Source of the DNA: a virus
Lineage: Duplodnaviria; Caudoviricetes
DNA length: 52,513 bases
Virus record (IMG/VR): IMGVR_UViG_3300031565_000048
Coordinates: 1-52,513 of that record
Direction: 5' to 3' (one strand)
Shown here: positions 128-52,513 of the stretch, one piece after another
How the letters are laid out: each line of letters opens with the position of its first letter
How positions within the stretch are numbered: position 1 is the first letter of the stretch
Notes under the pieces: generated by a model
Databases searched by the model: none
The model's input: the letters and a program-made list of their open reading frames with translations, nothing else
Told to the model about the DNA's origin: nothing
Translations under genes and position numbers: made by a program

Positions 128-236
128 AAATCTCATAACCACCAGAATATCCCCAAGTTTCCCATAGAGGGTAATGCCATAGGCATACGCCCTCGGCATA
201 TTCTGGGTGATCACAGTATTCTATTGAACATTTCAT
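1..236 (-). CDS. Small hypothetical cassette protein spanning the circular junction (continues 52386..52347)
   Basis: ATG at 236 overlaps the upstream stop. Reads MKCSIEYCDHPEY...NESMDSDIKRTMKNE* across the join. Not in the ORF track. Confidence 0.75.
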   Translation of the reverse strand, partial: MKCSIEYCDHPEYAEGVCLWHYPLWETWGYSGGYEIYQTRGQEEGRKQFKKWLMQQRHQNIIDIFTEYDWNLTQAVNE

Positions 237-478: not shown

Positions 479-482
479 AGTA

Positions 483-827: not shown

Positions 828-1336
828 GTTTTTTCCTCTTTTTCCCTTCCGCTTGAGGCGGGGACGGGTTGTGTGTCTGCTTCTCCAGTGTCGGGATGCT
901 CCGCAGACTCGCTTCTTAAAACACTGGTTTTCCTAAGTTGCTGGGATGCTATGGACATCATGACTGTCATGGCCTCATCGAGTTCACCGTCTTCTATCAA
1001 TTCGATTGCCTCAGTTGGGTAATACTGAAAAAGGTAGGCCCACCGTTCTATCCAGCCTGGGTGCATTTTCTCGTAAAGTTCCTCATATTCGTGTGAAGAG
1101 TAGCCGCCCTCAGCCTCCGCCTCATCTGGTAGTATCATCCACCATTGAGGCCGCCCTATCTTTACCTCTAGGCGTTTAGCGGTTATCAAGATTCTACCGT
1201 TTGGGATGCCCTTGCAGGTTCGGCATGGCTGAACCGCGTAGAGCTTACCTACCTCGTATCTGTCTGAGATCCGCCGCGTCTGTGTCTTGGTTCCCGCCTT
1301 GATCTGCTCTATGTGGTCGCCCTCTGAGAAGATTAT
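824..1336 (-). CDS. ASCH-domain protein, probable ATA start
   Basis: The frame is open upstream of TTG 1189 to ATA 1336 and adds the ASCH motif IKAGTKTQTRR. The C-terminal part has EAEAEGG. AGGAGG lies 8 nt upstream. Confidence 0.7.
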   Translation of the reverse strand: MIFSEGDHIEQIKAGTKTQTRRISDRYEVGKLYAVQPCRTCKGIPNGRILITAKRLEVKIGRPQWWMILPDEAEAEGGYSSHEYEELYEKMHPGWIERWAYLFQYYPTEAIELIEDGELDEAMTVMMSIASQQLRKTSVLRSESAEHPDTGEADTQPVPASSGREKEEKT

Positions 1337-1965
1337 TCGGTGTCCCTCCTGAGTTCAGCGTATTCGATGGGCTGAATGTTTTTGTTGAAGAATGCCCTTA
1401 TGCAGCCTTTGTGGTCTGATTGGTTTTCCCAATACTCGTAACAATCAACGCAGAGTTCAAGGTAGTCGCCATGTTCTTCGCAGCATTGAGGGTGATCTGG
1501 GGCTTGTATCTCATCGGCCCATGTTATTGGGTCGCCGCAGATGGCACAATTTGAGTCTGTGTAAACTTCCTCTGGATCTGGCTCCCATAGGAACTCGCCG
1601 CCGTATTTTTCTCTTTGTTCGAATAGGGTTAATTTGATGGAGGGAAGATACCAGGCTTTACCTATCAAGACTAGGAGAGGCAGCATTGCATATTCTAGGC
1701 GTTTCCACTTCCTACGCTTTTTCTCTCGATTATGATAGGTTTTCCACTTCTGTTCGTTGTCGTATTGGCATTCATCACAGCCATACCCGGTTTTGAAGAA
1801 ACTCGGTGAACCACATACAGGGCAGTGGAAGGTTCCCCAATCTCTCTGTCCCTTGATGGGAATGGGAAGCCAAGACCAGAACTTGATCATCGGGGCAGGG
1901 ATATGACCGTGAGGGGTTCTCACAAGGTCATAATAATTCGCGTTTTTAGGCTGTGCAAACTTCAT
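1333..1965 (-). CDS. Cys-rich (multiple CxxC) hypothetical protein
   Basis: Probable start MKFAQP at 1965 (TAATG overlap). Several CxxC pairs. Confidence 0.65.
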   Translation of the reverse strand: MKFAQPKNANYYDLVRTPHGHIPAPMIKFWSWLPIPIKGQRDWGTFHCPVCGSPSFFKTGYGCDECQYDNEQKWKTYHNREKKRRKWKRLEYAMLPLLVLIGKAWYLPSIKLTLFEQREKYGGEFLWEPDPEEVYTDSNCAICGDPITWADEIQAPDHPQCCEEHGDYLELCVDCYEYWENQSDHKGCIRAFFNKNIQPIEYAELRRDTE

Positions 1966-2678
1966 TATTCGGGCCTCCTTAGTTCGGCGCAGCAAATGGA
2001 CTCTACGTTTTCTTTTAGAATGTACTCGAACCATGTTTTATCCAGCCAATTTGTTAATTGACAGATTTTTTCATCTGTGGGTCTTGTGGTGTGGCTTGTG
2101 TAGTTCTCTAGACCTATTTCTATGGCCTCTGGCTGTATCGACATGATCCATGAAGCAAGTTCCCCAAAGTCGAAGTCTGAAAGTGGCTCCAAACTGAGAA
2201 AAGTTTTGAATCCGTTTAGCTTCATCTGTGAGAGACAATAGGCTCTTTCATGTGTACTTGGGGCCTTTGTCCAAGGGGTTAATCTATTTGTCTCAATGGT
2301 GGTACCTAGAATCACCTTTTCCTTCACTGCATCTAGGTCAAGATCTTTATCAAGGAAGCGACGGGGGTTCTTGGATTGTAGTAGGAACTTGTTGTTTGAA
2401 TTGTCTCTAAGTATGGTTAGTATTAGTTGGTATAGCCAAGAGTCGGGTACTTCATCACAGAACACATCACCCATGCTTCCGACGAATATCCAGGATTCAT
2501 CGTTTGGCATTGGGTCTTCTAGGAATTTTTCTCGGAACTGTGGGTGAAACTCTTTTCCCCATCTCTCAGTGAGTGCCCTAGCCCAGCAGTATTTACAATC
2601 GTGAGTGCAGCCCCATATTGGGTTCCATGTCCAGCCCACGGACTTGAACATGCGTCCTTTAGCTTTATTGAGTGTCAT
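1965..2678 (-). CDS. Phage Gp37/Gp68 (DUF5131)-like radical-SAM protein
   Basis: TWNPIWGCxxxCxYCWA, FVGSMGD and FLSLEPL motifs. Confidence 0.85.
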   Translation of the reverse strand: MTLNKAKGRMFKSVGWTWNPIWGCTHDCKYCWARALTERWGKEFHPQFREKFLEDPMPNDESWIFVGSMGDVFCDEVPDSWLYQLILTILRDNSNNKFLLQSKNPRRFLDKDLDLDAVKEKVILGTTIETNRLTPWTKAPSTHERAYCLSQMKLNGFKTFLSLEPLSDFDFGELASWIMSIQPEAIEIGLENYTSHTTRPTDEKICQLTNWLDKTWFEYILKENVESICCAELRRPE

Positions 2679-2830
2679 GTCCTATCGCCACCGTTCTTAA
2701 TGGATTCCTCTGACGTATGAGCCTCTGGGTGTATGCATTCTTTAGCGATGCAAAGAACACCCCATTTTAGTTCTCTCAATGCCCAGCAGTTTACCTTCTT
2801 ACAATCTTCGATTTTCACTGTCCTTGACAT
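2675..2830 (-). CDS. Small Cys-containing cassette protein
   Basis: Probable start MSRTVK at 2830, just after the upstream stop. Confidence 0.55.
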   Translation of the reverse strand: MSRTVKIEDCKKVNCWALRELKWGVLCIAKECIHPEAHTSEESIKNGGDRT

Positions 2831-2834
2831 AGTA

Positions 2835-3029
2835 TCACGTCCTCTTTTCTTGATTCTTAATGGATTTACGTTTCTCCAAGTAACCATTAACTAGCTTAAC
2901 GAGTTTTTCTTGAAATTCCTCATCATGTTCTCTACAAAGAAGGACGCCTGGTTGTCTTAGTCGTTTTACCCCGAACATAGTTATTGTATTATATGCTGGG
3001 TTGTCACAAAAGTCACAGGTAGCCACCAT
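2835..3029 (-). CDS. Small Zn-binding cassette protein
   Basis: CxxC...CxxH, TAATG coupling. Confidence 0.6.
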   Translation of the reverse strand: MVATCDFCDNPAYNTITMFGVKRLRQPGVLLCREHDEEFQEKLVKLVNGYLEKRKSIKNQEKRT

Positions 3030-3202
3030 TATGTCCTTACCCCCGTGTATCTAATGGATTTGTCAACATGTCTTTCCATCCAACAGGCTCGGCAGACCCA
3101 CTTTATCAGAGGACGATCCTCATCTAACTGGTTAGGGCAACTCGGCACATAGTCGAGTGGATCTCCGCAGTAATAGCAGACTTTAGGTATATCTTCATCC
3201 AA
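3029..3202 (-). CDS. Small Zn-finger cassette protein (57 aa)
   Basis: TTG start after GGAGG. Reads MDEDIPKVCYYCGD...VCRACW...KSIRYTGVRT*. Below the ORF track cutoff. Confidence 0.6.
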   Translation of the reverse strand: MDEDIPKVCYYCGDPLDYVPSCPNQLDEDRPLIKWVCRACWMERHVDKSIRYTGVRT

Positions 3203-3515: not shown

Positions 3516-3552
3516 TGTTCTCCATCCGTCCTCTTGGCGTTGGGGTTAATGG

Positions 3553-3771
3553 TCATTCTGGATCGTACTCCCTACCTTCGAGGATGCATTCAAGTTCGTA
3601 TCGCTTCTCGATGAAGGTTTCAGGGCTCATTGAGTAACCTAGACCATTTAACCAGATCTTGACCTTCTGGATTATTCCTTCTAAGTTCTTAATGTATTCA
3701 TGAATCTCTGTCTTGACGAGGTTTCCTTCCTCGTCGCAGACTAGATCCAGTATCGAAAAGGGTTTTTTCAT
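3553..3771 (-). CDS. Hypothetical cassette protein
   Basis: 72-aa ORF between the sites at 3529 and 3785. Confidence 0.6.
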   Translation of the reverse strand: MKKPFSILDLVCDEEGNLVKTEIHEYIKNLEGIIQKVKIWLNGLGYSMSPETFIEKRYELECILEGREYDPE

Positions 3772-4187
3772 TGTGTTTCCTCCGTCCTCTTGGCATGGGT
3801 AACAATGGATAATTCGGTGATTTTCTGGTTGTAATCTGCCATTATTTTTCGTTCCAGAAAATTCAACTCTGAGGAACTTCGTGTTAATTCTGGTGTAGTG
3901 TTTGGGTATAGTTTTTCAAATTGTTGTCTTTCCTTATTTTTCTCGATAAGTTCATCTAGGGCCGCTTGATATTTTTTGATCTGGTATTTCGGGTCTAAGA
4001 TCTGTGATTTCTGTTCTTTTGAGGCAAACCCGCATGGCTCATATACATCTATGCTAAACATGGCTGGGTTCAAGTATGTGCTCTCTATTTTTCCGCACCT
4101 TCGACAGATGCGGCGATCACAATCAAATGTACCGAACTCATCATAGTAGAACCAGGCGTGGAAGCCTAGCAAACAACGTAGGTTCAT
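3768..4187 (-). CDS. Hypothetical cassette protein with DUF1660-like N-terminus
   Basis: N-terminal CxxxxH...RICRRCG. Flanked by sites with an identical core. Confidence 0.6.
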   Translation of the reverse strand: MNLRCLLGFHAWFYYDEFGTFDCDRRICRRCGKIESTYLNPAMFSIDVYEPCGFASKEQKSQILDPKYQIKKYQAALDELIEKNKERQQFEKLYPNTTPELTRSSSELNFLERKIMADYNQKITELSIVTHAKRTEETQ

Positions 4188-4375
4188 TCTGTTGTCCTCC
4201 TTTCATGGGTGTTAATGGATTGACGTTTTTTCCACTCAATTTCAATGGGGCATTTTGGTTTTCGGATGCAGTTTAAACAATTATGGTAATCATCGCAGGG
4301 GAGATGTGGTTTCCCTAATTCTATCCATAGTTTTTCCTTTAGTAGATCTTCCTTAAAGCGGGATATTTTTTCCAT
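4184..4375 (-). CDS. Small Cys-rich cassette protein
   Basis: 63-aa ORF. Confidence 0.6.
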   Translation of the reverse strand: MEKISRFKEDLLKEKLWIELGKPHLPCDDYHNCLNCIRKPKCPIEIEWKKRQSINTHERRTTE

Positions 4376-4379
4376 CTTC

Positions 4380-4583
4380 TCATGTCCTCCTTTCAGATGT
4401 GTTTTGGGTCGTGGTGAAGATGCTCACCAGGATATGATAGTCGCCCTTTTCGGTGGGTAGCGGTGTGCTTACGCTACAGCCGGGGGCAAACTCGTTTCTG
4501 ATGCGGTCCCCGATTATCTGTAGTGTTTGGGGGTCGTCACCGTAGAACTTGCCTTTCACTTTTTCCTTCATTTTCGTTTTCAT
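4380..4583 (-). CDS. Hypothetical protein
   Basis: 67-aa ORF ending in the site at 4385. Confidence 0.55.
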   Translation of the reverse strand: MKTKMKEKVKGKFYGDDPQTLQIIGDRIRNEFAPGCSVSTPLPTEKGDYHILVSIFTTTQNTSERRT

Positions 4584-4634: not shown

Positions 4635-4841
4635 TCACCACCTCGAATGGATCTCGCCCCATGTGGAGGGCTCCTCAGGGATCAGGACGCTCGCCTTAGT
4701 GGTCTCGACTCCGCCGCCTATCCCGCTGCAGTCGTTGAAGGCCCTGCAACCCATGCAGTTGGAGGCCATGTACTTCTCGCCCAGCTCGTACATCTCGCCG
4801 ATACAGGAGGGGTATTTCTGGTTAGCCGTCTTCGTCACCAC
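4635..4841 (-). CDS. Small Cys-rich protein, first gene behind the array promoter
   Basis: GTG start about 22 nt downstream of a TATA box. Confidence 0.55.
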   Translation of the reverse strand: MVTKTANQKYPSCIGEMYELGEKYMASNCMGCRAFNDCSGIGGGVETTKASVLIPEEPSTWGEIHSRW

Positions 4842-4872
4842 AGTGAAGTACGGGTAATAAATATATAAAACT
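4831..4872 (-). promoter_or_regulatory. Archaeal TATA promoter with TTACCCGTAC box, heading the cassette array
   Basis: Minus strand reads AGTTTTATATATTTATTACCCGTACTTCACTGTGGTGACGAA. Related copies at 13766-13803 and 15130-15167. Confidence 0.7.
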
Positions 4873-4927
4873 TTGGGTGATCTGTTTTGAGGTGAAATCT
4901 CTTTATACTCCTAACCCAGATAGGTAC

Positions 4928-5837: not shown

Positions 5838-6718
5838 TGTACCGCCTCCTGTGCTATTCTCTGTGCTTCTGATAATGGGATCTCACCACATTTTTGGCAT
5901 CTTAGGATAGCCTCAGCTTCTCCGCCGCAGATGGGGCATACCAAATCCTTTGATGAGGCTAGTATGACGCTTAGTGATCGCCATGCCTTAAGTAGCCGTG
6001 ACTTGTCTCTCATCGCAGGCGAAGCTTTGAAGGTTTCACGCTCTTCCTCGGTTTCCTTGGCCCGCTCTCTTACCTCTCTCTTCGCGGTCCTCTCGATGGT
6101 TGGCTTATGGTAGCCCTGCCGATCCACTACAGTTACTCGTTTGGGTGACAGTACCTCAGGTGCTTTCTCGATTGCCTTCACGATGAAGTCAGGGTCTTTC
6201 AATGCTTTCTCTAGGACCTCGGTTTCATGGCGTTCAACATAGTCTGAGCCAAGTGCGGTTTCAATCCGCTGAGAAGCGGGAATCGTAGGTTTCTTTTTTT
6301 GCGCAAGTGATTCTTTTTCTGGTTGTTTAAACTCGTAGACAAGGTACTTGTTTACAGTCTGTTGTGTTAACGCTGTTACTTCCACAAGCTTCTCGACTAT
6401 TTCGTTTTTGAAAGGAAAACTACCTTTGATCTTTAGTCCTTGTTTTTGGTAGATTTTTGCCAGCCCGTTAATCCATTTTTCCTTTTCCGTTCTTGGAATC
6501 TCTCGTCTATGCCAGTTCGATATAGCCCTAGCCAACAACAGCTTCTCCTCAGAGTCGATGTGTTCAAGCGTCTCAGTCTTCCAGTCAGGATTATCCTCCA
6601 ACCTGTGAAAACCGTCAATCACCTGACCATCCTTAGCCACAAGAACCGGGTATAACTCACCCACGATCTTGGTAGACTCCTTACGATTGTATTCGCTCAT
6701 TTTTCCTCCTCTCCTCAT
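5834..6718 (-). CDS. ParB/Srx-like N-terminal domain protein with HTH and C-terminal Zn ribbon
   Basis: PVLV...VIDGFHRL, an HTH-like segment, and CPIC...CQKC. Likely start MSEYNR. Confidence 0.75.
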   Translation of the reverse strand: MRRGGKMSEYNRKESTKIVGELYPVLVAKDGQVIDGFHRLEDNPDWKTETLEHIDSEEKLLLARAISNWHRREIPRTEKEKWINGLAKIYQKQGLKIKGSFPFKNEIVEKLVEVTALTQQTVNKYLVYEFKQPEKESLAQKKKPTIPASQRIETALGSDYVERHETEVLEKALKDPDFIVKAIEKAPEVLSPKRVTVVDRQGYHKPTIERTAKREVRERAKETEEERETFKASPAMRDKSRLLKAWRSLSVILASSKDLVCPICGGEAEAILRCQKCGEIPLSEAQRIAQEAVQ

Positions 6719-7704: not shown

Positions 7705-9960
7705 TTATGTGCGGCGATATATGCCTGGGCGGGGGCTGAATATGGTGCCATCCTTCATGAGTACGCTTACTAGTTTGGCGGCCTCTGACCGCGTCACGCC
7801 CTGACCCTGCAACGCCTCATACAGGTCGTCGTCCTTGACACCGCTTTCTATAGTGCTCATCTCCCCTATCAGTTGCAGCGTCTTCTGTAGCTGACCCTTG
7901 AGGCTCCGCGCCTTCCCCGTGTACCCCATCGGCTTAAGTATCCGTAGTTTCCCCGTCACAGGCTCTGACGCATCCTCGAGGAGCAGCTGCTCAACGAATT
8001 TCCTTAGCTCGGATACCTTGAAGAGCCCCTTCTCGGTCACCCGCTGCAGCATCGTCTGGTAGTCACAATGCCCGTCAGTGGCTTCGCACTGCATCTCATA
8101 TATGATGTTACGAAGCAACTCCAGCTTCTGATGTAACCCTTTAGGCTTCCCCGTCATCCAGCTGTCTATGTTGCGTTCCCCTGTGGTGGGGTCTACGCCT
8201 ACTTGCTCCATGCTTGCCTCGATGATTCCCAGAGCGGTGAGGGCGTCGTCCTCTGTGGCTACCTCGTGGAGCCTGGATCGGGCCACGGCTTCGGTGACCC
8301 GTATGCATGATTCGAATTGTCGGGGAGTGATCATGATGGTAGGTTGCTTGGGATCCCCTATGTCGCCTTCCTTGGTGCGTCGGAGACCTAAGTAATATTC
8401 CTTAAGTTGCTGACCCACTGTCGGGGGTACCTCAGGGTGTATGTGTTTTCTGCAATATGCCACGTATTTTCGGAGTTCTCTGAGAGTGAGAGGTGACTGA
8501 ACTTGCTCACCGCGATGCACTCTCAGCAGGTGATCTGCTAGAGCTGCGTCTCGCTCCTCGTTTGGCTGATCCTTCATCACTCGTATTAAGTCAAACCTGT
8601 TCAGTATGGTCTCTTCGAGATTGATATTCTGAACCACGGTAAGGTATGGGTTATACCTCCCATCCTTAGGGTTCCCAGCCCCCAATATCCCACATCGTGC
8701 GTTAAGAGTCGTGTTGATGCCGCCCTTGTTGATCGGCACTATTTGTTGTTCCATGGCGGGGTGTATGGCGCGTCTGTCGTTCTCTTCCATTTTCTCGATC
8801 TCATCGATGGATACATGCCCCCTGTCAGCCAGAACTAGGGCGCCCGCCTCAAGGCTGTATCCGATGTCCTTATCCTTGACCACCGCCGCCGTGAGACCTG
8901 CGGCACTGCTGCCCCTGCCTGTGGTGTAGAGTCCCCGTGGGCTGGCTTTAGAGGCGAACTTAAGTAGTTGACTCTTCGCCAAACCAGGGTCACCGATGAG
9001 TAGGACGCTTATGTCGCCTCTTATGCGGACATCCTCCATCTCCTTGGCTTCCCCACCCATCAGGTAGGCGGCGACGCACTGCTTTTCCTCCCTGAGCCCG
9101 TAGATGCTGGGGGCGACGCTATCGGTGACGGCGGCGAACATATCCTGCCTCTTAGCCATATCACTGAAACTCTGCGCGTCCTCGGTGCTGCACTCCAGGT
9201 CTTCCGCATCTTCGGCTAGATACCCGAAGCCAAAGCAGCGCCCATACATCTCTAGTCTGCGTTCAGGGCTGCTCTTTCCCGCCATAGCCGCGTCGATAAC
9301 CGCAGTGATCCTAATCCGGTCACCCGCGTTGACACGTCCACAGAGCAATCCCCTGAGTTCGTAGGTGAATGTGCGAGGCATCTGCCCCGAGGGAAGGCTT
9401 TCAGGCGCCTCCTGCAGCTTCAGCAACTGAATGTCCTCGAATACGCTGTGTGATGGATCGAGTACCCAGTTTTTCCCCTTACAGTTATCGCACCTATCTA
9501 ACGGCTCGCTTCTGTACTGCATCTTCTGGGGGACTCTAATGCCCTGCCCACACTTCTGACAGATATAATAGGCTTCCCTGATCTTCGGCTCCGTTTGCGT
9601 GATCTTGACAACAATGCCGGACGTTGACGCAAGGCTGCCTATCATGTGGCTGCGTAGACTCCGAAGGGGAGTCTCCTGGTCGGGATGCCCGACTAGATGA
9701 ACCTCCACCGGGTGGTCCCTGATCAACTCGGGGACACGCATCGTCAGCAACTCCTTAACGTGGTATGAGACATCCAACAGAGTTTTATCTGTGTCACTGA
9801 CTAGGCGCTCCACGAGTTCGGTGCTATACTGGTAGAGGTCCGTGAGGTTGATCACTAGGCTCCCGTCGAGCCGCATGGTGGCTGCATCCAACGGGGGCAC
9901 AGCCCCGCAGCCTGTTAGGTATTCGCGGAGTGGTTCCATGTCCAAGTCCAGGGCGTCCAT
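7705..9960 (-). CDS. mcm: MCM replicative helicase
   Basis: Zn finger CQKC/CDNC, Walker A GDPGLAKS, Walker B IDEIEKM, MEQQ and Arg finger NRFD. Confidence 0.97.
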   Translation of the reverse strand: MDALDLDMEPLREYLTGCGAVPPLDAATMRLDGSLVINLTDLYQYSTELVERLVSDTDKTLLDVSYHVKELLTMRVPELIRDHPVEVHLVGHPDQETPLRSLRSHMIGSLASTSGIVVKITQTEPKIREAYYICQKCGQGIRVPQKMQYRSEPLDRCDNCKGKNWVLDPSHSVFEDIQLLKLQEAPESLPSGQMPRTFTYELRGLLCGRVNAGDRIRITAVIDAAMAGKSSPERRLEMYGRCFGFGYLAEDAEDLECSTEDAQSFSDMAKRQDMFAAVTDSVAPSIYGLREEKQCVAAYLMGGEAKEMEDVRIRGDISVLLIGDPGLAKSQLLKFASKASPRGLYTTGRGSSAAGLTAAVVKDKDIGYSLEAGALVLADRGHVSIDEIEKMEENDRRAIHPAMEQQIVPINKGGINTTLNARCGILGAGNPKDGRYNPYLTVVQNINLEETILNRFDLIRVMKDQPNEERDAALADHLLRVHRGEQVQSPLTLRELRKYVAYCRKHIHPEVPPTVGQQLKEYYLGLRRTKEGDIGDPKQPTIMITPRQFESCIRVTEAVARSRLHEVATEDDALTALGIIEASMEQVGVDPTTGERNIDSWMTGKPKGLHQKLELLRNIIYEMQCEATDGHCDYQTMLQRVTEKGLFKVSELRKFVEQLLLEDASEPVTGKLRILKPMGYTGKARSLKGQLQKTLQLIGEMSTIESGVKDDDLYEALQGQGVTRSEAAKLVSVLMKDGTIFSPRPGIYRRT

Positions 9961-13600: not shown

Positions 13601-13770
13601 TTTTCTTTCTCCTCCCCCGCCGGAGCAGGGTAATCTGGGTAGTTTGTTTCGAGAAGCTTCCGGAGTAAGTCAGGCATAGTCAACCCCTCGGCTCTAGCTC
13701 TGCTCTGGATTTGATCCTTAAGTTCCTCGGAAAGGGTGATTTGTTTAAAACCTGGTTTCGGCGTTTTCAT
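13597..13770 (-). CDS. Small RHH regulator (57 aa)
   Basis: FKQITLSEELKDQIQSRARAEGLTMPDLLRKLL. Directly behind a promoter. Confidence 0.7.
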   Translation of the reverse strand: MKTPKPGFKQITLSEELKDQIQSRARAEGLTMPDLLRKLLETNYPDYPAPAGEEKEK

Positions 13771-13803
13771 CACCACACAAGGGTACGGGTAACAATATAT
13801 AAG
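13766..13803 (-). promoter_or_regulatory. Promoter/operator repeat, copy 2
   Basis: 23 nt (13781-13803) identical to 15145-15167. Confidence 0.75.
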
Positions 13804-13855
13804 TCTTTCATAAAAATATGGTGGGTAAATACGCCCTTTATTTTTTACTGCCTGT

Positions 13856-14759: not shown

Positions 14760-15140
14760 TTAAGGTTGGCTGGTCGAGGCTGCCAGAATCAGGGAGGCAG
14801 ATATACGGTCGCTCGGCGTCCAGGGAAGGGAGAACGGGTTAACCAGCTGGGCTAGACGGCGCGTATCATACAGGATGTCAAGGGTTTCGTTGTATCGTTC
14901 AACCCATTCCTGGTGCCATTGAACATCGCCGACTTGGGAGGAGTCAAATTCGCTATTCTCGGTGAGGTAATCAACCCATAATATGTGTATGTCCCGGCAT
15001 TCCTCGATGTATCCAATGACTTCGCTGAGTTGGCTATCTGACGGAAGCGCCATTGATATGGTTCCTAATGTGATTAGGAAAACGGTTAAAAATAGTAAAC
15101 CGCGCTTCATAATTTGCGTTTTTGTCGTATTCATCACCAC
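14760..15140 (-). CDS. Secreted or membrane-anchored protein
   Basis: KR followed by the hydrophobic stretch GLLFLTVFLITLGTISMA. Confidence 0.65.
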   Translation of the reverse strand: MVMNTTKTQIMKRGLLFLTVFLITLGTISMALPSDSQLSEVIGYIEECRDIHILWVDYLTENSEFDSSQVGDVQWHQEWVERYNETLDILYDTRRLAQLVNPFSLPWTPSDRISASLILAASTSQP

Positions 15141-15167
15141 ATTGGGGTACGGGTAACAATATATAAG
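15130..15167 (-). promoter_or_regulatory. Promoter/operator repeat, copy 3
   Basis: CTTATATATTGTTACCCGTACCC...GTGGTGATGAA. Confidence 0.75.
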
Positions 15168-15202
15168 GGTTCTTGTGGGTTGGTCGGTTCCTTGCTCTGT
15201 TC

Positions 15203-25366: not shown

Positions 25367-26128
25367 TTAACTAATATGGTTTACCTGGAACGTTATTTCA
25401 TCTACACATCTTTGAACATTATCTTTAATTTCGTGCTCCCAGAAACGAAGAACCTGCCACCCATTCGCTCTAAGAGCCTTGTCCTGCCTTCTATCCTTCT
25501 CGACCATCTCAGGCAAGTTATGCCAGTAATCACCATCGCATTGAATAATGATCTTTCTCTCTGGAAAAACTATGTCAGGCTGGCACACCCCGCAAACCGG
25601 AAGATGCTTCTCGTAAATAATTCCTCGTTGGGTTAATTCGTTTTGCATAGCGACTTCAATAGAAGTATCCTTTTGGGGAAAAACCTGTTTTAGTCTAGCT
25701 TCTCGAATTTTATTTTTATGTTCTTCTGAAAATGTTTTTTCATAATAGCGGTGCATGTTTCCCTTTTTAAATCTACCCGAATGAGTTATTTTCTTTTGAG
25801 CATCCGACATTCTTCGTTTTGTATCTTCAGAAGCCTTGCGGTCCTTATTATGTTTGTTTCCCTTCGAGGATGTACTTATTTTTCTTCTATGATCCTCTGA
25901 GTATATTCCTTTTTGCCCTTTATTCCATGTAATAATACCTTTTAAAACCCTGCTAATTTTTTGTTTGTGTTCTTTAGATAGTGTTTTTCCTTTATGGGCA
26001 TTACTTATTTTTATTTTATGTTCTTCGGATAGTTTCTTATCCAGCCAATAACGTGTAGGGTTTTTCAGGTGACTCTCGGACATTTTTCTCTTGGTTTCTT
26101 CAGAGTGTTTAAACCCTTGTTTATACAT
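25367..26128 (-). CDS. NUMOD3-repeat / DUF559(Vsr)-like endonuclease
   Basis: Repeated SEE(T/H)KxK(M/I)S. C-terminal PDIVF...DGDYWH...GWQVLRFWE. Confidence 0.85.
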   Translation of the reverse strand: MYKQGFKHSEETKRKMSESHLKNPTRYWLDKKLSEEHKIKISNAHKGKTLSKEHKQKISRVLKGIITWNKGQKGIYSEDHRRKISTSSKGNKHNKDRKASEDTKRRMSDAQKKITHSGRFKKGNMHRYYEKTFSEEHKNKIREARLKQVFPQKDTSIEVAMQNELTQRGIIYEKHLPVCGVCQPDIVFPERKIIIQCDGDYWHNLPEMVEKDRRQDKALRANGWQVLRFWEHEIKDNVQRCVDEITFQVNHIS

Positions 26129-46781: not shown

Positions 46782-46839
46782 TATATTGAATTAGTTATCA
46801 TCAGCATATAAATAAGGTGTTGTGGTTTCAGCGCATCGC

Positions 46840-46965
46840 CTATCTCTCGATCACAGCGATGACTTTCTCTAGGCGATCAATGAGGCCGTCTATCGTTTTC
46901 TCGTGTTCCGTTAGGCAGTTTATGAGGAGATCAAGGACATCCATACGCTGGGTTAGGTTGCCCAT
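46840..46965 (-). CDS. Small coiled-coil protein (41 aa)
   Basis: MDVLDLLINCLTEHEKTIDGLIDRLE. Confidence 0.5.
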   Translation of the reverse strand: MGNLTQRMDVLDLLINCLTEHEKTIDGLIDRLEKVIAVIER

Positions 46966-47076
46966 TTTGTTCCTTTTAGTCCTCACAGTTCTCGGTAAAA
47001 TGGTTTGTGAAGTCAGGATATGGTTTAAAGATCTATGAATGGGTTGAGTGGGGAGAATCCTTCAACCTGTACCTAC

Positions 47077-47313
47077 TTAGGACTCCTCTTCCTCGTTTGC
47101 TTTATGGACCCCGTGGCCCTCCCTAATCTGGTATGCCTTCACCGCCCTGTAGAGGTACATCCAGCCACACCCACAGTTATCACACCCCTGAACCCTGTCT
47201 GGGTGAAGCCTCCAGGGGCAGGCATCACATGGCGGCTCTACGGGTATCTTGAGAAGCTGGGCGTAGATTCTCAGCTTCTCCTTTGCTTTGGTGGGCCTGT
47301 GTCTTTCACTCAT
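47077..47313 (-). CDS. Small Cys-rich cassette protein
   Basis: CDAC...CDNC. Confidence 0.55.
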   Translation of the reverse strand: MSERHRPTKAKEKLRIYAQLLKIPVEPPCDACPWRLHPDRVQGCDNCGCGWMYLYRAVKAYQIREGHGVHKANEEEES

Positions 47314-47497
47314 CCTTATGCTCCTCCGGATAATGGATTTTAAACTTAGCTAAAGGATAAAGTGGAGTAGCCCACTGACAATCTGGGCATCTCCAAAATA
47401 TCTTTGAATATGTCAATCCATCAAGTAATTCATCAAGAACATCATTCCCACATCTGGGGCAAACATGAGGTTTAGTTATAACCGTTCTTTTACTCAC
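47306..47497 (-). CDS. Zn-ribbon cassette protein
   Basis: CPRC...CPDC. Flanked by sites sharing the core CGGAGGA. Confidence 0.6.
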   Translation of the reverse strand: MSKRTVITKPHVCPRCGNDVLDELLDGLTYSKIFWRCPDCQWATPLYPLAKFKIHYPEEHKDE

Positions 47498-47687
47498 CCT
47501 TTGACTCCTCCGTTAATAGGATGCGGAGAACTTCTCGCCCCAGCCGTGTCGCATGGAAATAATGCGTAACGTGCCCACATTTGCAACTCCAATGTTTTAA
47601 TGCACCACACCCACATTCTTCGCTAGTGCAATAGATTCCGGAACCGTTGTCTGACCCACATTTCTCGCATTTACCCATCCTTGGCAT
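47490..47687 (-). CDS. Cys-rich cassette protein
   Basis: Multiple Cys pairs. Confidence 0.55.
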   Translation of the reverse strand: MPRMGKCEKCGSDNGSGIYCTSEECGCGALKHWSCKCGHVTHYFHATRLGREVLRILLTEESKGE

Positions 47688-47810
47688 CCTCCGCTTTTAG
47701 GATTGATGAGCCGCATGTAATACATTCAACATGAATTTTTCTTGATGCCTTTCCACGGTAAACGTGAAAACATTTACCTCCACACTCTGCGCAGATTAGT
47801 TTTATTTTGT

Positions 47811-48050
47811 TCATTCCTCTTGCTCTCCCTCTTTATGGTCAATTAATTTAGCATCAAGAACCCATATCTCATCTGAGTCATTATCAATGCGTTCTAAGGC
47901 CCAATCTGCTGAAGCCTCGTAATCAGATGCTTCTAAAAACTTTTTATCGCATGATGGACATTTCGGGCAACCCATTTCATCTAATTTAAGAGTAGAATTA
48001 CAGATGTGGCAACGGGCTCTCAGTGATTCAAGATGTTCTCTTATGGACAT
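47811..48050 (-). CDS. Zn-finger cassette protein
   Basis: CHIC...CPSC. Probable start MSIRE. Confidence 0.55.
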   Translation of the reverse strand: MSIREHLESLRARCHICNSTLKLDEMGCPKCPSCDKKFLEASDYEASADWALERIDNDSDEIWVLDAKLIDHKEGEQEE

Positions 48051-48183
48051 CCTAAACGCCCTCCTCTTTACGGATTTCCTCTGAACGATCATAAAGATAA
48101 ATCAACCAAGGATGTTTTATCAAGTAAGCCAAAGCGTGCCAATAAAGCACCCACTCAGGTATTTTCTTAGTTCTTGACAAATC

Positions 48184-48408
48184 CTAAGCACCTCCGTGTT
48201 TTAGGTCGTTTTCTAATGGGTAATCATCTGGCATGAATGGCATTCTCCCATATCTTTCAGGACTGTGTTTATTATGAACTTCTCTTATATGATCGGCAGT
48301 TTTTTTCAATAGTTTATCAAAATCGGTTTGCCGGATATTATCTTTAAATCCCCAAGTGTGCCAATCACAAAACGGGCATTCCATCCTTCTAACTCTTACT
48401 TTTTTCAT
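48184..48408 (-). CDS. C2H2-like Zn-finger cassette protein
   Basis: CPFC...HIREVH. Confidence 0.6.
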   Translation of the reverse strand: MKKVRVRRMECPFCDWHTWGFKDNIRQTDFDKLLKKTADHIREVHNKHSPERYGRMPFMPDDYPLENDLKHGGA

Positions 48409-48409
48409 C

Positions 48410-48622
48410 CTAAGCACCCTCATATTTACGGATAAGATTCTGAGGATCGGAAAACTTCAAGTTATAATTAGCCTCAAATACCCGAACCATGTCAATTAAC
48501 TGTCTAAGTTTCCGTTGATGTTTACTTGGAGGATTACGTATTGCCACATCTTCAAGTGGCTTCATCTTCCAGAACTCTTCAAGGAAGGTTTCTACAAGTT
48601 TCTTTAATTCAGTTTCACTCAT
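48410..48622 (-). CDS. Hypothetical cassette protein
   Basis: 70-aa ORF between two sites. Confidence 0.6.
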   Translation of the reverse strand: MSETELKKLVETFLEEFWKMKPLEDVAIRNPPSKHQRKLRQLIDMVRVFEANYNLKFSDPQNLIRKYEGA

Positions 48623-49233
48623 GTCTCTATCCTCTTTGATTTGCTATTAGTGGATTTGAAGAAATCCAATAACTCTGTTTGTGGCCATGGCCCTTGTTTT
48701 TGGATCATTAGAAGCCAGTATGATTGTTTGGCTGTTTTACCAGCATATCCTACGGGGATTCTTAGGGCAACATCCCAGAGAGGGAGATATTCAAGAACCT
48801 CGTTTGTGCTTAGGCTGTTTTCACTCCACTTAAAGAATAGAATCCCGCCAGGTATTAGGACTCGTGCGATTTCCCTTTGGGTTTCGTAGATGAATCGCAT
48901 TAACTCGGTTTTTGTTTGGTACTTATCTGCTCCATAATAGACCGGCGGTGCTTCTCTGCTATGAGAGGGCCATTTCTTGTTCCATGTTTCTCGGTTTGGT
49001 GTGGTGAAGAGGCTGCTATTTTTTCTTTTGCCCCATTCATGTGGTGGATCAAACACAGCGAAGAACTTGGAATCTGGGGGGAGATCGGTATTAGTGGCAT
49101 CGCAGAGAAGGTCAGGGGGCAATGAGAGATCGGGTTCTTTATCTAAGAAGAGTATGTGTGGGCTATCTTTAAGGGTCCAGATACTACGGTTCCCGGCCGT
49201 GAAGTCAACTATTGTAGCATCTGGTTTCTCCAT
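48619..49233 (-). CDS. Small amino-type DNA methyltransferase
   Basis: DFTAGNR SAM motif, FDPPH catalytic motif, and RVLIPGGILFFKW. Confidence 0.8.
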   Translation of the reverse strand: MEKPDATIVDFTAGNRSIWTLKDSPHILFLDKEPDLSLPPDLLCDATNTDLPPDSKFFAVFDPPHEWGKRKNSSLFTTPNRETWNKKWPSHSREAPPVYYGADKYQTKTELMRFIYETQREIARVLIPGGILFFKWSENSLSTNEVLEYLPLWDVALRIPVGYAGKTAKQSYWLLMIQKQGPWPQTELLDFFKSTNSKSKRIET

Positions 49234-49235
49234 TT

Positions 49236-49439
49236 TTATGTCCTCTTTGTTTGCTTTCTTCTGGATTCAATTATCTTGGCATGTTGTTTACAATATTCAC
49301 CGTTAGGACCATACCCTCTTTTCCTTTTACATTGATAGAAATGCCAGCCAGTTTCATCTACCACCTCAGCAATACACCGAGTAGAATCTTCAGGAATACC
49401 TTGGGGCCTTATATTCGATTGATCATACACTCTATCCAT
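49236..49439 (-). CDS. Small Zn-binding cassette protein
   Basis: C...QCKRK...YCKQH. Confidence 0.6.
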   Translation of the reverse strand: MDRVYDQSNIRPQGIPEDSTRCIAEVVDETGWHFYQCKRKRGYGPNGEYCKQHAKIIESRRKQTKRT

Positions 49440-49484
49440 TTTTCTATGTCCTCTTTTTGGTTTCGACTTGGGTCATTTCATTTT

Positions 49485-49739
49485 TCACCTTGAAAGTAAA
49501 TACCTCATAAGTACATCGATGTTCGGCGAAGTCTTTTTGGCTCTTCTCTTCTTTATTCTCTCTATGATTTCGTTATGAATCTGTTTTTCCTGACAGTCAG
49601 GCTTCCCATGATTCGGGCATTTCTTCCATTCAGGGCAGACCACCAAGTTATTGGCGTTTATCTTGATATGAACTGCCCTGCGTTTGCCCTCAACCGTGCA
49701 GAGAACCACGCCTTCTTGGTAGCTGTGCTTACTCATCAT
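49485..49739 (-). CDS. Hypothetical cassette protein
   Basis: 84-aa ORF. Confidence 0.55.
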   Translation of the reverse strand: MMSKHSYQEGVVLCTVEGKRRAVHIKINANNLVVCPEWKKCPNHGKPDCQEKQIHNEIIERIKKRRAKKTSPNIDVLMRYLLSR

Positions 49740-50179
49740 TCTACCTCCATCCGTTTAGTGTGTTTGATAATGGATGTATCAAGAATTAATGGTTCTAAGT
49801 TAGCGAGTTGAGTTAATATCTCATTAGCGTAAATATGGGAAACATGATTCTGAGGCCAAGTAATAGCTTTATCATCAATGTATGCAGTAGCGAATACCTT
49901 TCCATCCATCTGGGTGGCGATTTTATCAAAGGGCATATTATAATGTTCAAGGTATTCCTTTATTGCTACCTTGATTTTCTTGTAGTCGTGATTCTCCCAT
50001 TGCCCATTAGTTCTACATGTGAATATTACTATTTCATAGCCAAGTTTCTTTATTCCTTCAAGCAAATACCTTACGCTTTCATTAGGCTCCCCGAATTTAT
50101 ATGGATCATAGTGTCCATCATAATGACATATTACTCCATCAAAGTCTACTGCAATATGTCTAACTTTAATCCCCATCAT
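49736..50179 (-). CDS. HAD-superfamily phosphatase
   Basis: DFDGVI, IFTCR and YIDDKA. Confidence 0.85.
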   Translation of the reverse strand: MMGIKVRHIAVDFDGVICHYDGHYDPYKFGEPNESVRYLLEGIKKLGYEIVIFTCRTNGQWENHDYKKIKVAIKEYLEHYNMPFDKIATQMDGKVFATAYIDDKAITWPQNHVSHIYANEILTQLANLEPLILDTSIIKHTKRMEVE

Positions 50180-50210
50180 TCCACCGTCCTCTTAGTATCT
50201 GAGTTACTGG

Positions 50211-50387
50211 TCATTCTTCTTTGAACTCCATCTTAATTTTATAGTGTGTTTGGTGTCTCTCCTCTCTTATCTCATCTAAGACTTCAACAAGTTCTGGTAA
50301 TGTTTCATAGGGCTGGGAGCCGTGACGCTGATATATTCCATCAATTAGAATGTTTAACACGGTTTTTGCTTCTTCTTTAAGACTCAT
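50211..50387 (-). CDS. Small hypothetical cassette protein (58 aa)
   Basis: MSLKEEAKTVL...MEFKEE*. Lies between the sites at 50187 and 50398. Confidence 0.55.
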   Translation of the reverse strand: MSLKEEAKTVLNILIDGIYQRHGSQPYETLPELVEVLDEIREERHQTHYKIKMEFKEE

Positions 50388-50665
50388 TTTTCCACTCTCC
50401 TAAGTTCTTTAGAGATAATGGAGCCGTTTCTCTTTGTGATCTCAACACCACAGTAAAACAATGTCTCGCCTTCTTGCATGGTGTCAAGGATTTTAGCTGT
50501 TCCAGCGGCTCTAATTAAGCTGCTTCCTCTTGAATGTTTATTCACAAGTTCCTTTGTTGTCGCCACTCGTTTACCGTATAGAAAGTCGGGGTAATTGTTC
50601 TGTAGAAGCCTCCAATGTTCCTTGAAGGCTAAATCAAATAGAAGGTCATCTGATATGGGCGTCAT
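50384..50665 (-). CDS. Hypothetical cassette protein
   Basis: 93-aa ORF. Confidence 0.55.
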   Translation of the reverse strand: MTPISDDLLFDLAFKEHWRLLQNNYPDFLYGKRVATTKELVNKHSRGSSLIRAAGTAKILDTMQEGETLFYCGVEITKRNGSIISKELRRVEK

Positions 50666-50754
50666 TTTGTTTAGTATCGGCCATACTTGATCAAAGTTTT
50701 CTACGGCTCGGTCAAGCCATTGAATGCCGCTTATTGAGTCTGAGGAAAAAAGGC

Positions 50755-51108
50755 TCAGTTGGGGTCATCCTCCTGCCATGCAGAATAGACTTTCTGCCAA
50801 TCTGAGCCGTAGATTCGTTTGAAGTCGTCGATTGTTGGTTGTCTGCGTTCTATTTCTTTCCATCCATGATCATCTTTTAGCCAGTGGCGTTCTAACTTGA
50901 TTGACTTATTCGCTTCTTTAAGAACATAAAGCGGGTCAGCCTTCTCAAGTAGTTTCTTCAGTTTCTCTTGGTCCTCTTCGCATGGTGTGAACCATTCACC
51001 GAATGGACCTAGATAGAAGCGTATGGTGTCTGTCTCTGTAGTTACTGATTTGACGTATTCGCCTGTTTCGTCGTCTATGGTCTCCAAATTGTATTCGCGT
51101 GTTTTCAT
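50755..51108 (-). CDS. Hypothetical cassette protein
   Basis: Probable start MKTREY (ATGA overlap). Confidence 0.6.
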   Translation of the reverse strand: MKTREYNLETIDDETGEYVKSVTTETDTIRFYLGPFGEWFTPCEEDQEKLKKLLEKADPLYVLKEANKSIKLERHWLKDDHGWKEIERRQPTIDDFKRIYGSDWQKVYSAWQEDDPN

Positions 51109-51326
51109 TTTTCCATCTCCTTGGACCGTAATTGCTGGGAGTAAATGGATTCTTTTGAGTAGCTGATCAATATGACGGGTGGTTCGGTATTTTCTGTGAC
51201 GCAGCATTTCTTATACATGCCCTTAATATTAGGGTCATAGGTGCAAGCCCCAGATGCGATGTCAACACCACATCTTTGAGCCGTTTTACATTTCTCTGGA
51301 TATTTAGGGCATGGAAGCTTAGGCAT
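51105..51326 (-). CDS. Cys-rich cassette protein
   Basis: 73 aa. Confidence 0.55.
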   Translation of the reverse strand: MPKLPCPKYPEKCKTAQRCGVDIASGACTYDPNIKGMYKKCCVTENTEPPVILISYSKESIYSQQLRSKEMEK

Positions 51327-51504
51327 CGGTCCTTTCTCCTTTAGATTCTCTGGTCCCGAGTTGCTGGGAGCTAATGGATGGGTTCACTTTGCTTTCTATT
51401 TCCCCAGTATCTCTGTAGTATCCGTACCAGAAAACGATGCAATTATCACAATCATGGTTTTTTGTGCATTCAAGTTCAGTAAATTTACATTTCAGTGGGG
51501 GCAT
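51319..51504 (-). CDS. Cys-rich cassette protein
   Basis: 61 aa. The C-terminus reads through two tandem sites. Confidence 0.55.
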   Translation of the reverse strand: MPPLKCKFTELECTKNHDCDNCIVFWYGYYRDTGEIESKVNPSISSQQLGTRESKGERTDA

Positions 51505-51845
51505 TACCCAAGTTCCTCCGTTACGTTTGTGATGTGAGTTTCTAGTTGGTTTGAATCGTAGAGATAAACGATCTTGGTGACATCGGCTACTAATCGAGGG
51601 TACTTGGTGTATCCTACGACAAACACGGCTTTATCGTGTTTCAGTTGATTGCCTTGAAATACTATGTTTCTTCCTTTGTAGAATTGACCAAGTAATCTAG
51701 ATCTCTTCTCGATAAGTCGATTCCACCAGTGATCTGAAGCATCACGATATTCAACTGTCTTTTTACCTGATTTGATGGCTTCATATAGATCGCCATACTT
51801 CTCAAACCCTTCTAAATATCTTTTCAAGACAAAATGTGCTGGCAT
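51504..51845 (-). CDS. ASCH-domain protein
   Basis: YEAIKSGKKTVEYR motif. Confidence 0.75.
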   Translation of the reverse strand: MPAHFVLKRYLEGFEKYGDLYEAIKSGKKTVEYRDASDHWWNRLIEKRSRLLGQFYKGRNIVFQGNQLKHDKAVFVVGYTKYPRLVADVTKIVYLYDSNQLETHITNVTEELG

Positions 51846-52036
51846 TAGGGCGTCCTCTTTTTGGTTTCGTCTACGGTTTCCTCTGAACTATTATTTTTAT
51901 CAAAATACCATATAGGTAAATCTTGACAATCGGTACAGTTAGACCTTGAACCCCCACCATATGGACAGCCAAGCGGATCTTCTCTAGCAGCAGGACATAG
52001 CCCCCAATCATCATCTTTTATGATAGTTCTTGACAA
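51845..52036 (-). CDS. Cys-rich cassette protein
   Basis: 63 aa. Confidence 0.55.
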   Translation of the reverse strand: MSRTIIKDDDWGLCPAAREDPLGCPYGGGSRSNCTDCQDLPIWYFDKNNSSEETVDETKKRTP

Positions 52037-52037
52037 G

Positions 52038-52178
52038 CTAAATCGACCTCTTCCTGTGTTTCTCTAAGGATGTCCTTTCAGCCATCATAATGTCCCCACA
52101 TTCAAAATCGTAATCACAGTATTTACAAAGCATTGAAGGTTGGCATTCTGGATATTTCTTACCATCAGTATCAGTCAT
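52038..52178 (-). CDS. Small Cys-rich cassette protein (46 aa)
   Basis: ATGA overlap. Lies between the sites at 52046 and 52189. Confidence 0.5.
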   Translation of the reverse strand: MTDTDGKKYPECQPSMLCKYCDYDFECGDIMMAERTSLEKHRKRSI

Positions 52179-52354
52179 TTTATTTCTATCCTCTTACTAT
52201 CTGATTTAGCGGAGTCATGTATTTCTCTAATTTTTTGATGACGTTCTTGGACAGTTCCATGCCACTTATAAGAACCCATCAATCGAGTCCGATCTTTGCC
52301 TGTTAATTCGTTTTCCCACCAACGGATTATTTTATGAATATCCATTTTACTCAT
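52175..52354 (-). CDS. Small hypothetical cassette protein (59 aa)
   Basis: Flanked by two sites with the core TCAGATA. Confidence 0.55.
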   Translation of the reverse strand: MSKMDIHKIIRWWENELTGKDRTRLMGSYKWHGTVQERHQKIREIHDSAKSDSKRIEIK

Positions 52355-52386
52355 TTTTCATCGTCCTCTTAATATCTGAATCCATT

Positions 52387-52513
52387 GATTCGTTGACTGC
52401 CTGAGTTAGATTCCAATCATATTCTGTGAAAATGTCGATTATGTTCTGGTGCCTTTGTTGCATTAACCATTTCTTGAACTGTTTTCTGCCTTCTTCTTGT
52501 CCTCTAGTTTGGT
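52387..52513. repeat. Terminal overlap, copy 2
   Basis: Exact match to 1-127. Confidence 0.95.

Follow-up and report, generated by a model that had tools for sequence, protein, structure and literature searches.

Fixed-spacing linkers between the early genes of a probably archaeal tailed virus: candidate translational-coupling joints that may also serve as breakpoints for gene exchange

IMG/VR record IMGVR_UViG_3300031565_000048 (Duplodnaviria; Caudoviricetes) is a complete virus record of 52,513 nucleotides, analyzed here at its full length (hereafter the window), whose ends overlap exactly over 127 bp (positions 1-127 and 52387-52513) and whose long genes all lie on the minus strand. It encodes a large terminase, a tape-measure protein, glycosyl- and methyltransferases and a full-length MCM helicase, besides small zinc-ribbon proteins. 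About 38 small, tightly packed genes on the same strand, as called by a simple in-house gene caller, form an array that runs from a GTG at 4841 across the sequence ends to 46840, just short of the late promoter, and that is best read as the early accessory genes of the virus in one operon. The array, counted here as region A (46980-52513 plus 1-4409; 9,943 nt), has a G+C content of 41-46% as against ~55% in the core. An earlier note on this DNA had pointed out that sites of the form WCC-N19-GGW mark most junctions of its small, co-oriented, unrelated genes behind a single promoter, and this was borne out: the encoded proteins are mutually unrelated in an all-against-all BLASTP comparison, 28 of the 38 genes have such a site, which we call the linker, and one promoter is recognizable (TATA box at 4869). 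The note had gone on to read the linkers as the recombination sites of an integron-like cassette array.

The fixed spacing that had been claimed for these sites is real. Exact WCC-N19-GGW occurs 36 times in region A, whereas each of 23 other spacings (x=8 to x=31) occurs 2-14 times and a first-order Markov null of the region yields a mean of 8.9 (sd 2.9, maximum 18 in 500 runs). Outside region A, the density at x=19 is 1.39/kb, and other in-phase spacings there have 1.25-1.53/kb. A weight matrix built up from these occurrences and applied to the minus strand at ≥9 bits returned 38 matches in the window (33 in region A and 5 elsewhere) as compared to a mean of 5.1 in shuffled sequence. All 33 region-A sites are on the coding strand, 31 of them exact and two with one mismatch; the four plus-strand matches are the class-2 sites described below, read in reverse. 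Five exact region-A occurrences score below 9 bits, two of which are tandem neighbors of real sites. The earlier tally was 26 exact and four one-mismatch sites, and the two examples quoted with it (49750 and 48630) read as given. A start codon lies -1 to +16 nt after the site in 28 of 33 cases. The enrichment at x=19 persists when Shine-Dalgarno sequences are controlled for by considering only starts with GGA within 19 nt: WCC stands exactly 19 nt upstream of the nearest GGA at 13 of 36 array starts. Other spacings account for 0-5 of these starts each, and elsewhere in the genome the arrangement is seen at 2 of 73.

The linker, 25 nt long, has the consensus aa, (T/A)CCATWA (box 1), 12 variable bases, and wGAGGAc (box 2). 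Its symmetry is confined to the three bases WCC/GGW; it does not extend to positions 3, 4, and 6 and their counterparts 21, 20, and 18, and position 0 is often A opposite A. Two classes can be told apart. Class 1 comprises 20 start-linked sites (48630-52388 and 1-4409), at which the next gene has box 2 as its Shine-Dalgarno box and its start codon 1-16 nt further on. In class 2 (7 consecutive sites, 47313-48432), a central GGAGG serves as Shine-Dalgarno sequence and the ATG comes directly after the terminal GGA. Every class-1 site is read in frame 0 (20/20), 17 as the tail of the upstream gene, which stops at +27 to +42, on or beside the next start (ATGA, TAATG). At the other three, where the upstream stop lies at or before the first base of the site, an ATG stands exactly at -3 and opens a mini open reading frame (mini-ORF) of 10-14 codons in the same frame; among the remaining 30 sites, an ATG at -3 occurs once. 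In class 2, the upstream gene is in frame 2 in 7 of 7 cases. The earlier statement that sites fall in different frames therefore holds only in part, the frame being constant within each class.

The tails encoded by the linkers are alike (S-I-x4-K/R-R-T) on unrelated proteins, and since 17 class-1 sites encode such tails, a C-terminal peptide tag on early proteins had to be considered; one subfamily even retains a Leu through the synonymous codons TTA, CTC, and CTT. However, the codons themselves are fixed. Ser codons at site position 0 are TCC in 13 of 14 cases and Thr codons are ACC in 6 of 6, whereas in the bodies of the array genes the share of TCC among 117 Ser codons is 16%, that of ACC among Thr codons 29%, and that of AGG among Arg codons 14%. 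Because the site codons are fixed against local usage, the constraint acts on the nucleotides and not on the encoded peptide, as the earlier note had maintained. The free-standing mini-ORFs and the seven sites read in another frame also speak against a tag, as does P0002, the sole homolog found for any cassette protein. This protein is 56% identical to the product of 3768-4187 but ends six codons earlier, and box 1 and the spacer would fall in the missing stretch; the tail belongs to the linker rather than to the protein. A peptide tag is largely ruled out by the codon usage test, and we consider it almost certainly wrong.

Box 2 is more than a Shine-Dalgarno box, with A conserved at position 24 in 86% and C at position 25 in 46% of sites, two bases that we take to be unable to pair with the 16S rRNA 3' end. 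Box 1 retains its WCC in 31 of 33 sites, while the adjoining 12 bases vary freely. The outer triplets are self-complementary, and their centers lie a rigid 22 bp apart. We rejected an RNA hairpin in which TCC would pair with GGA and sequester the Shine-Dalgarno sequence: a consensus fold of the 33 sites (RNAalifold) gave no structure (0.0), folding energies were near those of shuffles (mean z-score -0.38), and position 0 is often A. A guide RNA acting in cis was likewise rejected, as the coding strand beyond the array had only two matches to the complement of box 1 and one to that of box 2, all scattered. At the junction before gene 3029-3202 (3203-3240, minus strand), box 1 (TCCATTA) is separated from GGA by a 26-nt spacer; this was the only junction spotted by eye with box 1 at another spacing.

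The linkers resemble one another beyond their consensus. In-register identical runs of at least 9 nt join 49 site pairs, as compared to 11.1 in column shuffles (maximum 24), and the longest run common to two sites is 18 nt (49449-49473 and 51853-51877). Neighboring sites share alternating halves (4409/4219 the right, 4219/3809 the left, 3809/3553 the right). The linkers therefore appear either to share ancestry or to exchange sequence. Terminase relatives, with 84-86% identity, have the late genes in common with the window virus but not the array; in relative G001, ~13 kb of the window is replaced by ~1.7 kb, and the small early genes of these relatives have ordinary GGAGG boxes and no box 1. 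Linker-less relatives here means these terminase relatives, at ≤91% amino-acid identity, closer ones being present only as short contigs in sequencing runs X7 and X8. It is thus conceivable that the linkers are inherited scars, joints copied through gene conversion or together with successive insertions, of which only the Shine-Dalgarno part is under selection. Subfamilies that share up to 18 nt of variable center, relatives that do without the motif, and a homolog, P0002, without box 1 would all be expected on that account. Scars, however, should not keep WCC in nearly every copy beside 12 freely varying bases, should include spacings altered by three nucleotides in either direction, of which none were found, and should not maintain frame-0 passage by means of three mini-ORFs; we therefore consider this explanation unlikely.

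Searches for further linker-bearing relatives returned little. Viral contigs yielded no relative when searched with the MCM, with a 139-amino-acid cassette protein (alone or aligned with P0002), or with a HAD-like cassette protein, and metagenome contigs yielded none for the 139-amino-acid protein. The pattern AATCCATTA-N14-AGGAC gave single matches in viral contigs, with at most two matrix matches per locus among the matches listed, the 18-mer common to two sites gave 0 matches, and genome contigs returned only the same virus at 100% identity.

Array words are present at 98-99% in six soil runs and at 5% in two runs of other studies (groundwater, subsurface), and we compared the array at 80% likeness with Logan contigs of soil runs X2 and X6 and of the small-share runs X7 and X8. 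Low-depth variants (~5-20x) occur beside a dominant genome at 240-730x. In the 15 of 37 joints on which the joint statistics are based, 17 of 30 joint ends lie in a site or no more than 4 nt from one, as compared to 3.5 expected (binomial P = 4e-9), and both ends lie at sites in 5 of the 15 joints listed. Ends at sites fall mostly at the edges (offsets -4 to +3 or 23 to 26), with few in the center. The joint 49241-51854, with seven shared letters (AAGAGGA), was found in two runs, X6 and X8, the latter from another study, and the joint 48654-49448 sets two linkers back to back. In a contig of X7, the 47-amino-acid cassette 47671-47814 is absent and a single linker is left, while in an X7 contig one cassette is swapped for 521 other letters beginning at a site edge. 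One joint among those listed runs backwards, which we read as a reordering. Contigs of the dominant genome break beside sites as well (47653-47682, 48040-48069, 48608-48637, and 51340-51363), and such breaks are places where the assembly graph branches. Because 17 of 30 joint ends fall at sites, these contigs support gain and loss of genes at the linkers in low-depth variants, in agreement with the breakpoints that the earlier note had expected in relatives. Two considerations temper this conclusion. The shorter side of the joints measures 21-57 letters, on short contigs, and repeats can attract split matches; moreover, where an operon lacks spacers, any whole-gene insertion or deletion is bound to have its break near a start codon, so that the position of the breakpoints is no proof that the linker causes exchange. 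Stretches of the window that had no coverage in X7 and X8 did not enter the evidence. Base differences contributed nothing, as among 40 of 337 of them the sites were hit 0 times versus ~3.7 expected, a result to which we gave no weight.

Joint ends at sites, including the five joints with both ends there, together with unrelated cassettes between fixed-length sites and neighboring sites that look like left/right hybrids (4409/4219/3809/3553), are what one would expect if a site-specific recombinase, either host XerA-like or an unrecognized viral enzyme, excised and inserted single-gene cassettes in the manner of an integron. The geometry attributed to the sites in the earlier note, that of a tyrosine recombinase, did not hold up: the arms are not inverted repeats beyond WCC/GGW, they form no hairpin, the 3' arm is the ribosome site, and the sites are bound to strand and frame. 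Strand exchange by tyrosine recombinases takes place in the central overlap, whereas few of the joint ends are central. Nor would reciprocal site-specific exchange leave the empty tandem sites that are present. In the complete genome, PF00589 had no match at E ≤ 1 (its control was positive in 14/14 genomes), and PF00239, PF07508, and PF01609, which represent serine recombinases, large serine recombinases, and DDE transposases, had none either, again with positive controls. No recombinase lead came from Pfam, PHROGs, or ESM Atlas for the genes neighboring the array, among them those of the two proteins just upstream, whose Atlas models were poor (pLDDT 0.29 and 0.59). An integron-like mechanism is therefore very unlikely in our estimation.

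Each linker could instead be an internal promoter, with box 1 as a non-canonical substitute for the TATA box and B recognition element (BRE) and with transcripts that have short leaders or none. Box 1, which is moderately AT-rich (ATTAA, TAAA), stands 24-41 nt ahead of the starts, and in halovirus HF2 the repeats that precede genes are promoters (PMC8707807), a role also suggested for those of HGTV-1 (PMC3950731). However, box 1 is not the 8-bp AT-rich archaeal BRE/TATA box found ~26 nt before transcript starts, and the promoters that can be recognized in the window have full TTTATATA-type boxes 24-27 nt ahead of starts without Shine-Dalgarno sequences (4869, 13802, 15166, and 46812); the TATA-like matches listed comprise these four and a few others, and none of these coincides with a matrix site. 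While box 2 lies at a fixed distance from box 1, the start lies at one that varies by 17 nt, and any transcript begun behind box 2 would be without the conserved Shine-Dalgarno sequence. Internal promoters thus appear to us quite improbable.

The explanation that we favor, with moderate confidence, is that the element serves an early operon with coupled translation as its standard intercistronic linker and is, in addition, a short-homology breakpoint. An upstream frame or relay mini-ORF that crosses the linker in a fixed frame and stops at the next start has the anatomy of translational coupling, and the linker would act in the mRNA as a standard joint for coupling and initiation, its box 1, at a rigid distance from box 2, being read by a host or viral factor. 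With the same 8-18 nt repeated from joint to joint, linkers could double as short-homology breakpoints at which whole genes are deleted, inserted, or replaced while the coupling of their neighbors remains undisturbed, and no dedicated recombinase would be involved. Several observations weigh against this explanation. It does not account for box 1 and the rigid 19-nt spacing, as spacings of 16 and 22 nt would keep the frame but are not enriched, and the reading frame alone therefore does not fix the distance. Class 2 keeps the WCC/GGA skeleton even though its working Shine-Dalgarno sequence is central, and for a plain ribosome site this is a poorer fit than for a site of two parts that is bound on DNA or RNA. 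Four gene-less tandem joints (2730/2704, 51378/51354, and 47132/47108/47082) are unexpected for a translation signal, and the terminase relatives (16 viral and 16 metagenome loci) have only 0-1 coding-strand matrix match each.

Box 1, the rigid spacing, and the class-2 skeleton, which are left over by translational coupling, point to a factor that reads both boxes, on RNA or DNA, and they keep alive, as an unlikely alternative, a set of DNA operators in which a viral or host protein binds half-sites two helical turns apart at ~30 places and silences or times the early operon. Rigidly spaced self-complementary triplets, a skeleton retained where it is not the main Shine-Dalgarno sequence, and the tandem sites would suit such a protein, for which the window offers small helix-turn-helix-like products in or near the array (233-478; weak Pfam matches) and a ParB_N-like lead of 294 amino acids upstream of it (5834-6718). 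On the other hand, the symmetry extends over only 3 bp, a roadblock has no need of sites bound to starts and reading frame, the four recognizable promoters have no site, and neither a repressor nor an integrase was identified. A more speculative extension of translational coupling, which we hold to be improbable, is that the linker is a plug-in socket through which cassettes are swapped among co-infecting archaeal viruses with coupling preserved. A gene in frame 0 would be read across the linker and end at the next start, one in frame 2 would end in box 1, and a relay mini-ORF would be added when the upstream gene ends early. A dedicated viral factor without a known recombinase fold, for which the ParB_N-like protein or an orphan 276-amino-acid protein just upstream of the array would be candidates, might bind WCC-N19-GGA and promote exchange at linker edges and so account for the empty tandem sockets. 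Archaeal viruses would then have a gene-cassette system that either needs no recombinase or uses a new one.

Integrons consist of promoterless, co-oriented cassettes behind one promoter, separated by attC sites that an IntI integrase recombines as folded bottom-strand hairpins. The array resembles them in its promoterless co-oriented cassettes, single promoter, and repeated sites, but it has no IntI tyrosine recombinase beside it and no palindromic hairpin sites, its sites overlap coding sequence and the ribosome site, and its breakpoints are found at the edges of the sites. In cluster A mycobacteriophages, the stoperators, 13-bp sites for the repressor (gp71 in L5) of temperate phages, are likewise ~30 asymmetric sites at gene junctions in one orientation relative to transcription; they differ in not being bound to ribosome site or reading frame, and no repressor was identified in the window virus. 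PeSLs (promoter-early stem-loops) of T4-type phages, discussed further below, are reportedly the subject of Comeau et al. 2014.

We thus regard the linker array as a variant of the known gene-junction repeats of phages rather than as an integron. Closest in layout are the start-associated sequences (SAS) and extended SAS (ESAS) of cluster K mycobacteriophages (Pope et al. 2011, PMC3203893). The SAS has a 13-bp consensus, GGGATAGGAGCCC, in 11-19 copies per genome, and the study assigns it no function and finds no support for an RNA hairpin. Both SAS and linker are short asymmetric repeats with self-complementary outer triplets (GGG-N7-CCC and WCC-N19-GGW, respectively) that hold a Shine-Dalgarno core as well as conserved bases unable to pair with 16S rRNA. 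Both occur in a single orientation a few bases before starts of genes of unrelated families, in the non-structural half of the genome and often over the upstream stop, a placement matched by the linker with 33 of 38 matches in the array, all on the coding strand, and 28 of 33 before a start. The linker differs in being bipartite and 25 nt long, (T/A)CCATWA-N12-wGAGGAc, without the SAS consensus, in its number (~33 in 10 kb), in the domain of the host, and in that the upstream gene reads through it in a fixed frame. ESAS, as described there, are 17-bp inverted repeats with a variable spacer, unlike the rigid spacer and 3-bp symmetry of the linker.

In evolutionary role, the nearest analogs are the PeSLs (Arbiol et al. 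2010, PMC2839356) and a motif of HGTV-1. PeSLs comprise sigma-70 promoters and terminator hairpins, and their mini-circles have been demonstrated physically. Like linkers, they are small repeats that flank non-essential orphan genes in hyperplastic regions, and recombination between them deletes, inserts, and replaces genes, which for the linker is indicated by contig joints only. Repeat-bounded insertions, deletions, and replacements between close relatives, as reported for PeSLs, are likewise suggested by these joints, which come from short contigs. The linker, however, has neither promoter nor stem-loop and is a translation joint inside one operon. In the haloarchaeal myovirus HGTV-1, a conserved motif precedes most left-arm open reading frames (Sencilo et al. 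2013, via PMC3950731); here too an archaeal tailed virus would have most genes of its early arm behind one motif, and both regulation and genome shuffling were suggested for it. The intergenic repeats of HF2, which are promoters (PMC8707807), are comparable not to the linker but to the three sister promoters of the window virus. Keyword searches of the literature found analogs only and no description of this motif, a kind of search that cannot show absence.

Repeats before early genes of phages (SAS, PeSL, HGTV-1) have been known for more than a decade. The present array is an unusually clean case, with ~33 copies in 10 kb, two rigidly spaced boxes, a strict frame rule, relay mini-ORFs, and cassette variants in the same samples. 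It offers a compact system for asking how the archaeal ribosome moves from gene to gene in a long polycistron and whether a standard joint makes accessory genes freely exchangeable. It is also a warning that integron-looking arrays in viral metagenomes can be translation joints. The sites and promoters are listed in Table 1.

Table 1. Linker sites of the early array and the promoters at its two ends
Position	Strand	Feature	Context
4831..4876	-	array promoter	TATA box at 4869 (TTTATATA) followed by TTACCCGTAC; GTGGTGA start ~24 nt downstream (GTG 4841)
4385..4409	-	class 1	before gene 4184-4375
4195..4219	-	class 1, 26.8 bits	before gene 3768-4187
3785..3809	-	class 1	before gene 3553-3771; forms tail of gene 3768-4187, shortened in P0002
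3529..3553	-	class 1, after upstream stop	mini-ORF (ATG -3, 14 codons); before gene 3195-3515
3034..3058	-	class 1	before gene 2835-3029
2840..2864	-	class 1, 25.3 bits	before gene 2675-2830
2706..2730	-	exact WCC-N19-GGW below matrix threshold	tandem pair with 2680-2704
2680..2704	-	class 1	before gene 1965-2678 (DUF5131)
1976..2000	-	class 1	before gene 1333-1965
1568..1592	-	weak site, maybe chance	inside gene 1333-1965; no start behind
931..955	-	TCCCAGCAA subfamily site	inside gene 824-1066; no start behind
52364..52388	-	one mismatch (TCA)	spans edge of 127-bp overlap; before gene 52175-52354
52189..52213	-	class 1	before gene 52038-52178
52046..52070	-	class 1	before gene 51845-52036
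51853..51877	-	class 1	before gene 51504-51845; 18 nt common with 49449-49473; joint end in X6, X8
51354..51378	-	tandem pair, upstream member	without own start codon
51330..51354	-	tandem pair, downstream member	before gene 51105-51326
51125..51149	-	site ending GGT	before gene 50755-51108
50398..50422	-	class 1	before gene 50211-50387; edge of X7 cassette replacement (521 other letters)
50187..50211	-	after upstream stop	mini-ORF (ATG -3, 12 codons); before gene 49736-50179
49750..49774	-	class 1	before gene 49485-49739
49449..49473	-	after upstream stop	mini-ORF (ATG -3, 10 codons); before 49236-49439; joint end in X2, X6, X8
49241..49265	-	class 1	before gene 48619-49233 (methyltransferase-like, PHROGs); joint end in X6, X8
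48630..48654	-	class 1	before gene 48410-48622; joint end in X2, X6; dominant-contig break in X2
48408..48432	-	class 2	central GAGGG/GGAGG, ATG right after GGA; before gene 48184-48408
48182..48206	-	class 2	before gene 48052-48180
48050..48074	-	class 2	before gene 47811-48050
47815..47839	-	class 2	before gene 47671-47814, cassette missing in X7 contig
47678..47702	-	class 2	before gene 47490-47678
47497..47521	-	class 2, one mismatch (GGG)	before gene 47306-47497
47313..47337	-	class 2	before gene 47077-47313
47058..47132	-	three abutting sites (47108-47132, 47084-47108, 47058-47082)	end of gene 47077-47313; no start behind; TAA in box 1 of the last site is stop codon of this gene
46980..47004	-	last linker site	before 41-amino-acid open reading frame 46840-46965
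46782..46819	-	late-operon promoter, end of array	TATA-like TTTATATG at 46812, then ATAACTAATTC, ATG 46781, no Shine-Dalgarno sequence

The array promoter is one of three near-identical minus-strand repeats (4831-4876, 13765-13810, and 15130-15175, with TATA boxes at 4869, 13802, and 15166), each made up of TTATATAT, 2-3 bases, TTACCCGTAC, six bases, and GTGGTGA(T/C)GAA. By appearance they are archaeal TATA promoters whose GTG start is leaderless, and each probably marks one of three early transcription units. The element ATAACTAATTC of the late promoter stands between TATA box and first ATG in the window and in two relatives (L008, ~8150-8200; L003, ~2750-2798), and the flanks around it differ among the three. 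Coding-strand runs of T inside the array on the minus strand (T8 at 457-464 and T6 at 50746-50751) are possible archaeal terminators that might split it into two or three transcripts. One segment of the array, 51232-51449, which covers gene 51105-51326 and the tandem sites, reaches a depth of 381 in groundwater run X7, against 0-30 for the remainder of the array. A homolog of this gene, 45% identical, lies just before the late operon of the relatives G002 and G004; the small gene is widely shared.

The virus is very probably an uncultured archaeal tailed virus, on the grounds of its MCM helicase (E = 1e-121 versus archaeal MCM structures), the phage-collection records matching that helicase, all of which are archaeal viruses (19/19), a terminase whose best named match is that of Methanobacterium phage psiM2 (40.8%), and its archaeal-looking promoters. 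A second assembly of the virus, L148, a GTDB contig of 52,527 bp that is 100% identical over 20.9 kb, is filed in a bin labeled Dehalococcoidia, which if correct would argue against an archaeal host; we consider the label probably a binning error. Its length equals 52,386 + 141, and both assemblies thus fit a unit length of 52,386 bp. The window ends therefore mean a circular or circularly permuted genome and not true terminal repeats, and what looks like a "direct terminal repeat" of 127 bp is probably an overlap left by the assembler. No tRNA genes were found in the window, and an Rfam scan of all of it at gathering thresholds gave 0 matches. Within the structural module, a gene on the minus strand (25367-26128) combines NUMOD3 with a Vsr/DUF559-type endonuclease and is likely a homing endonuclease; a single 64-amino-acid stretch of it (41% identity) matches relative G001, where it lies at a different position.

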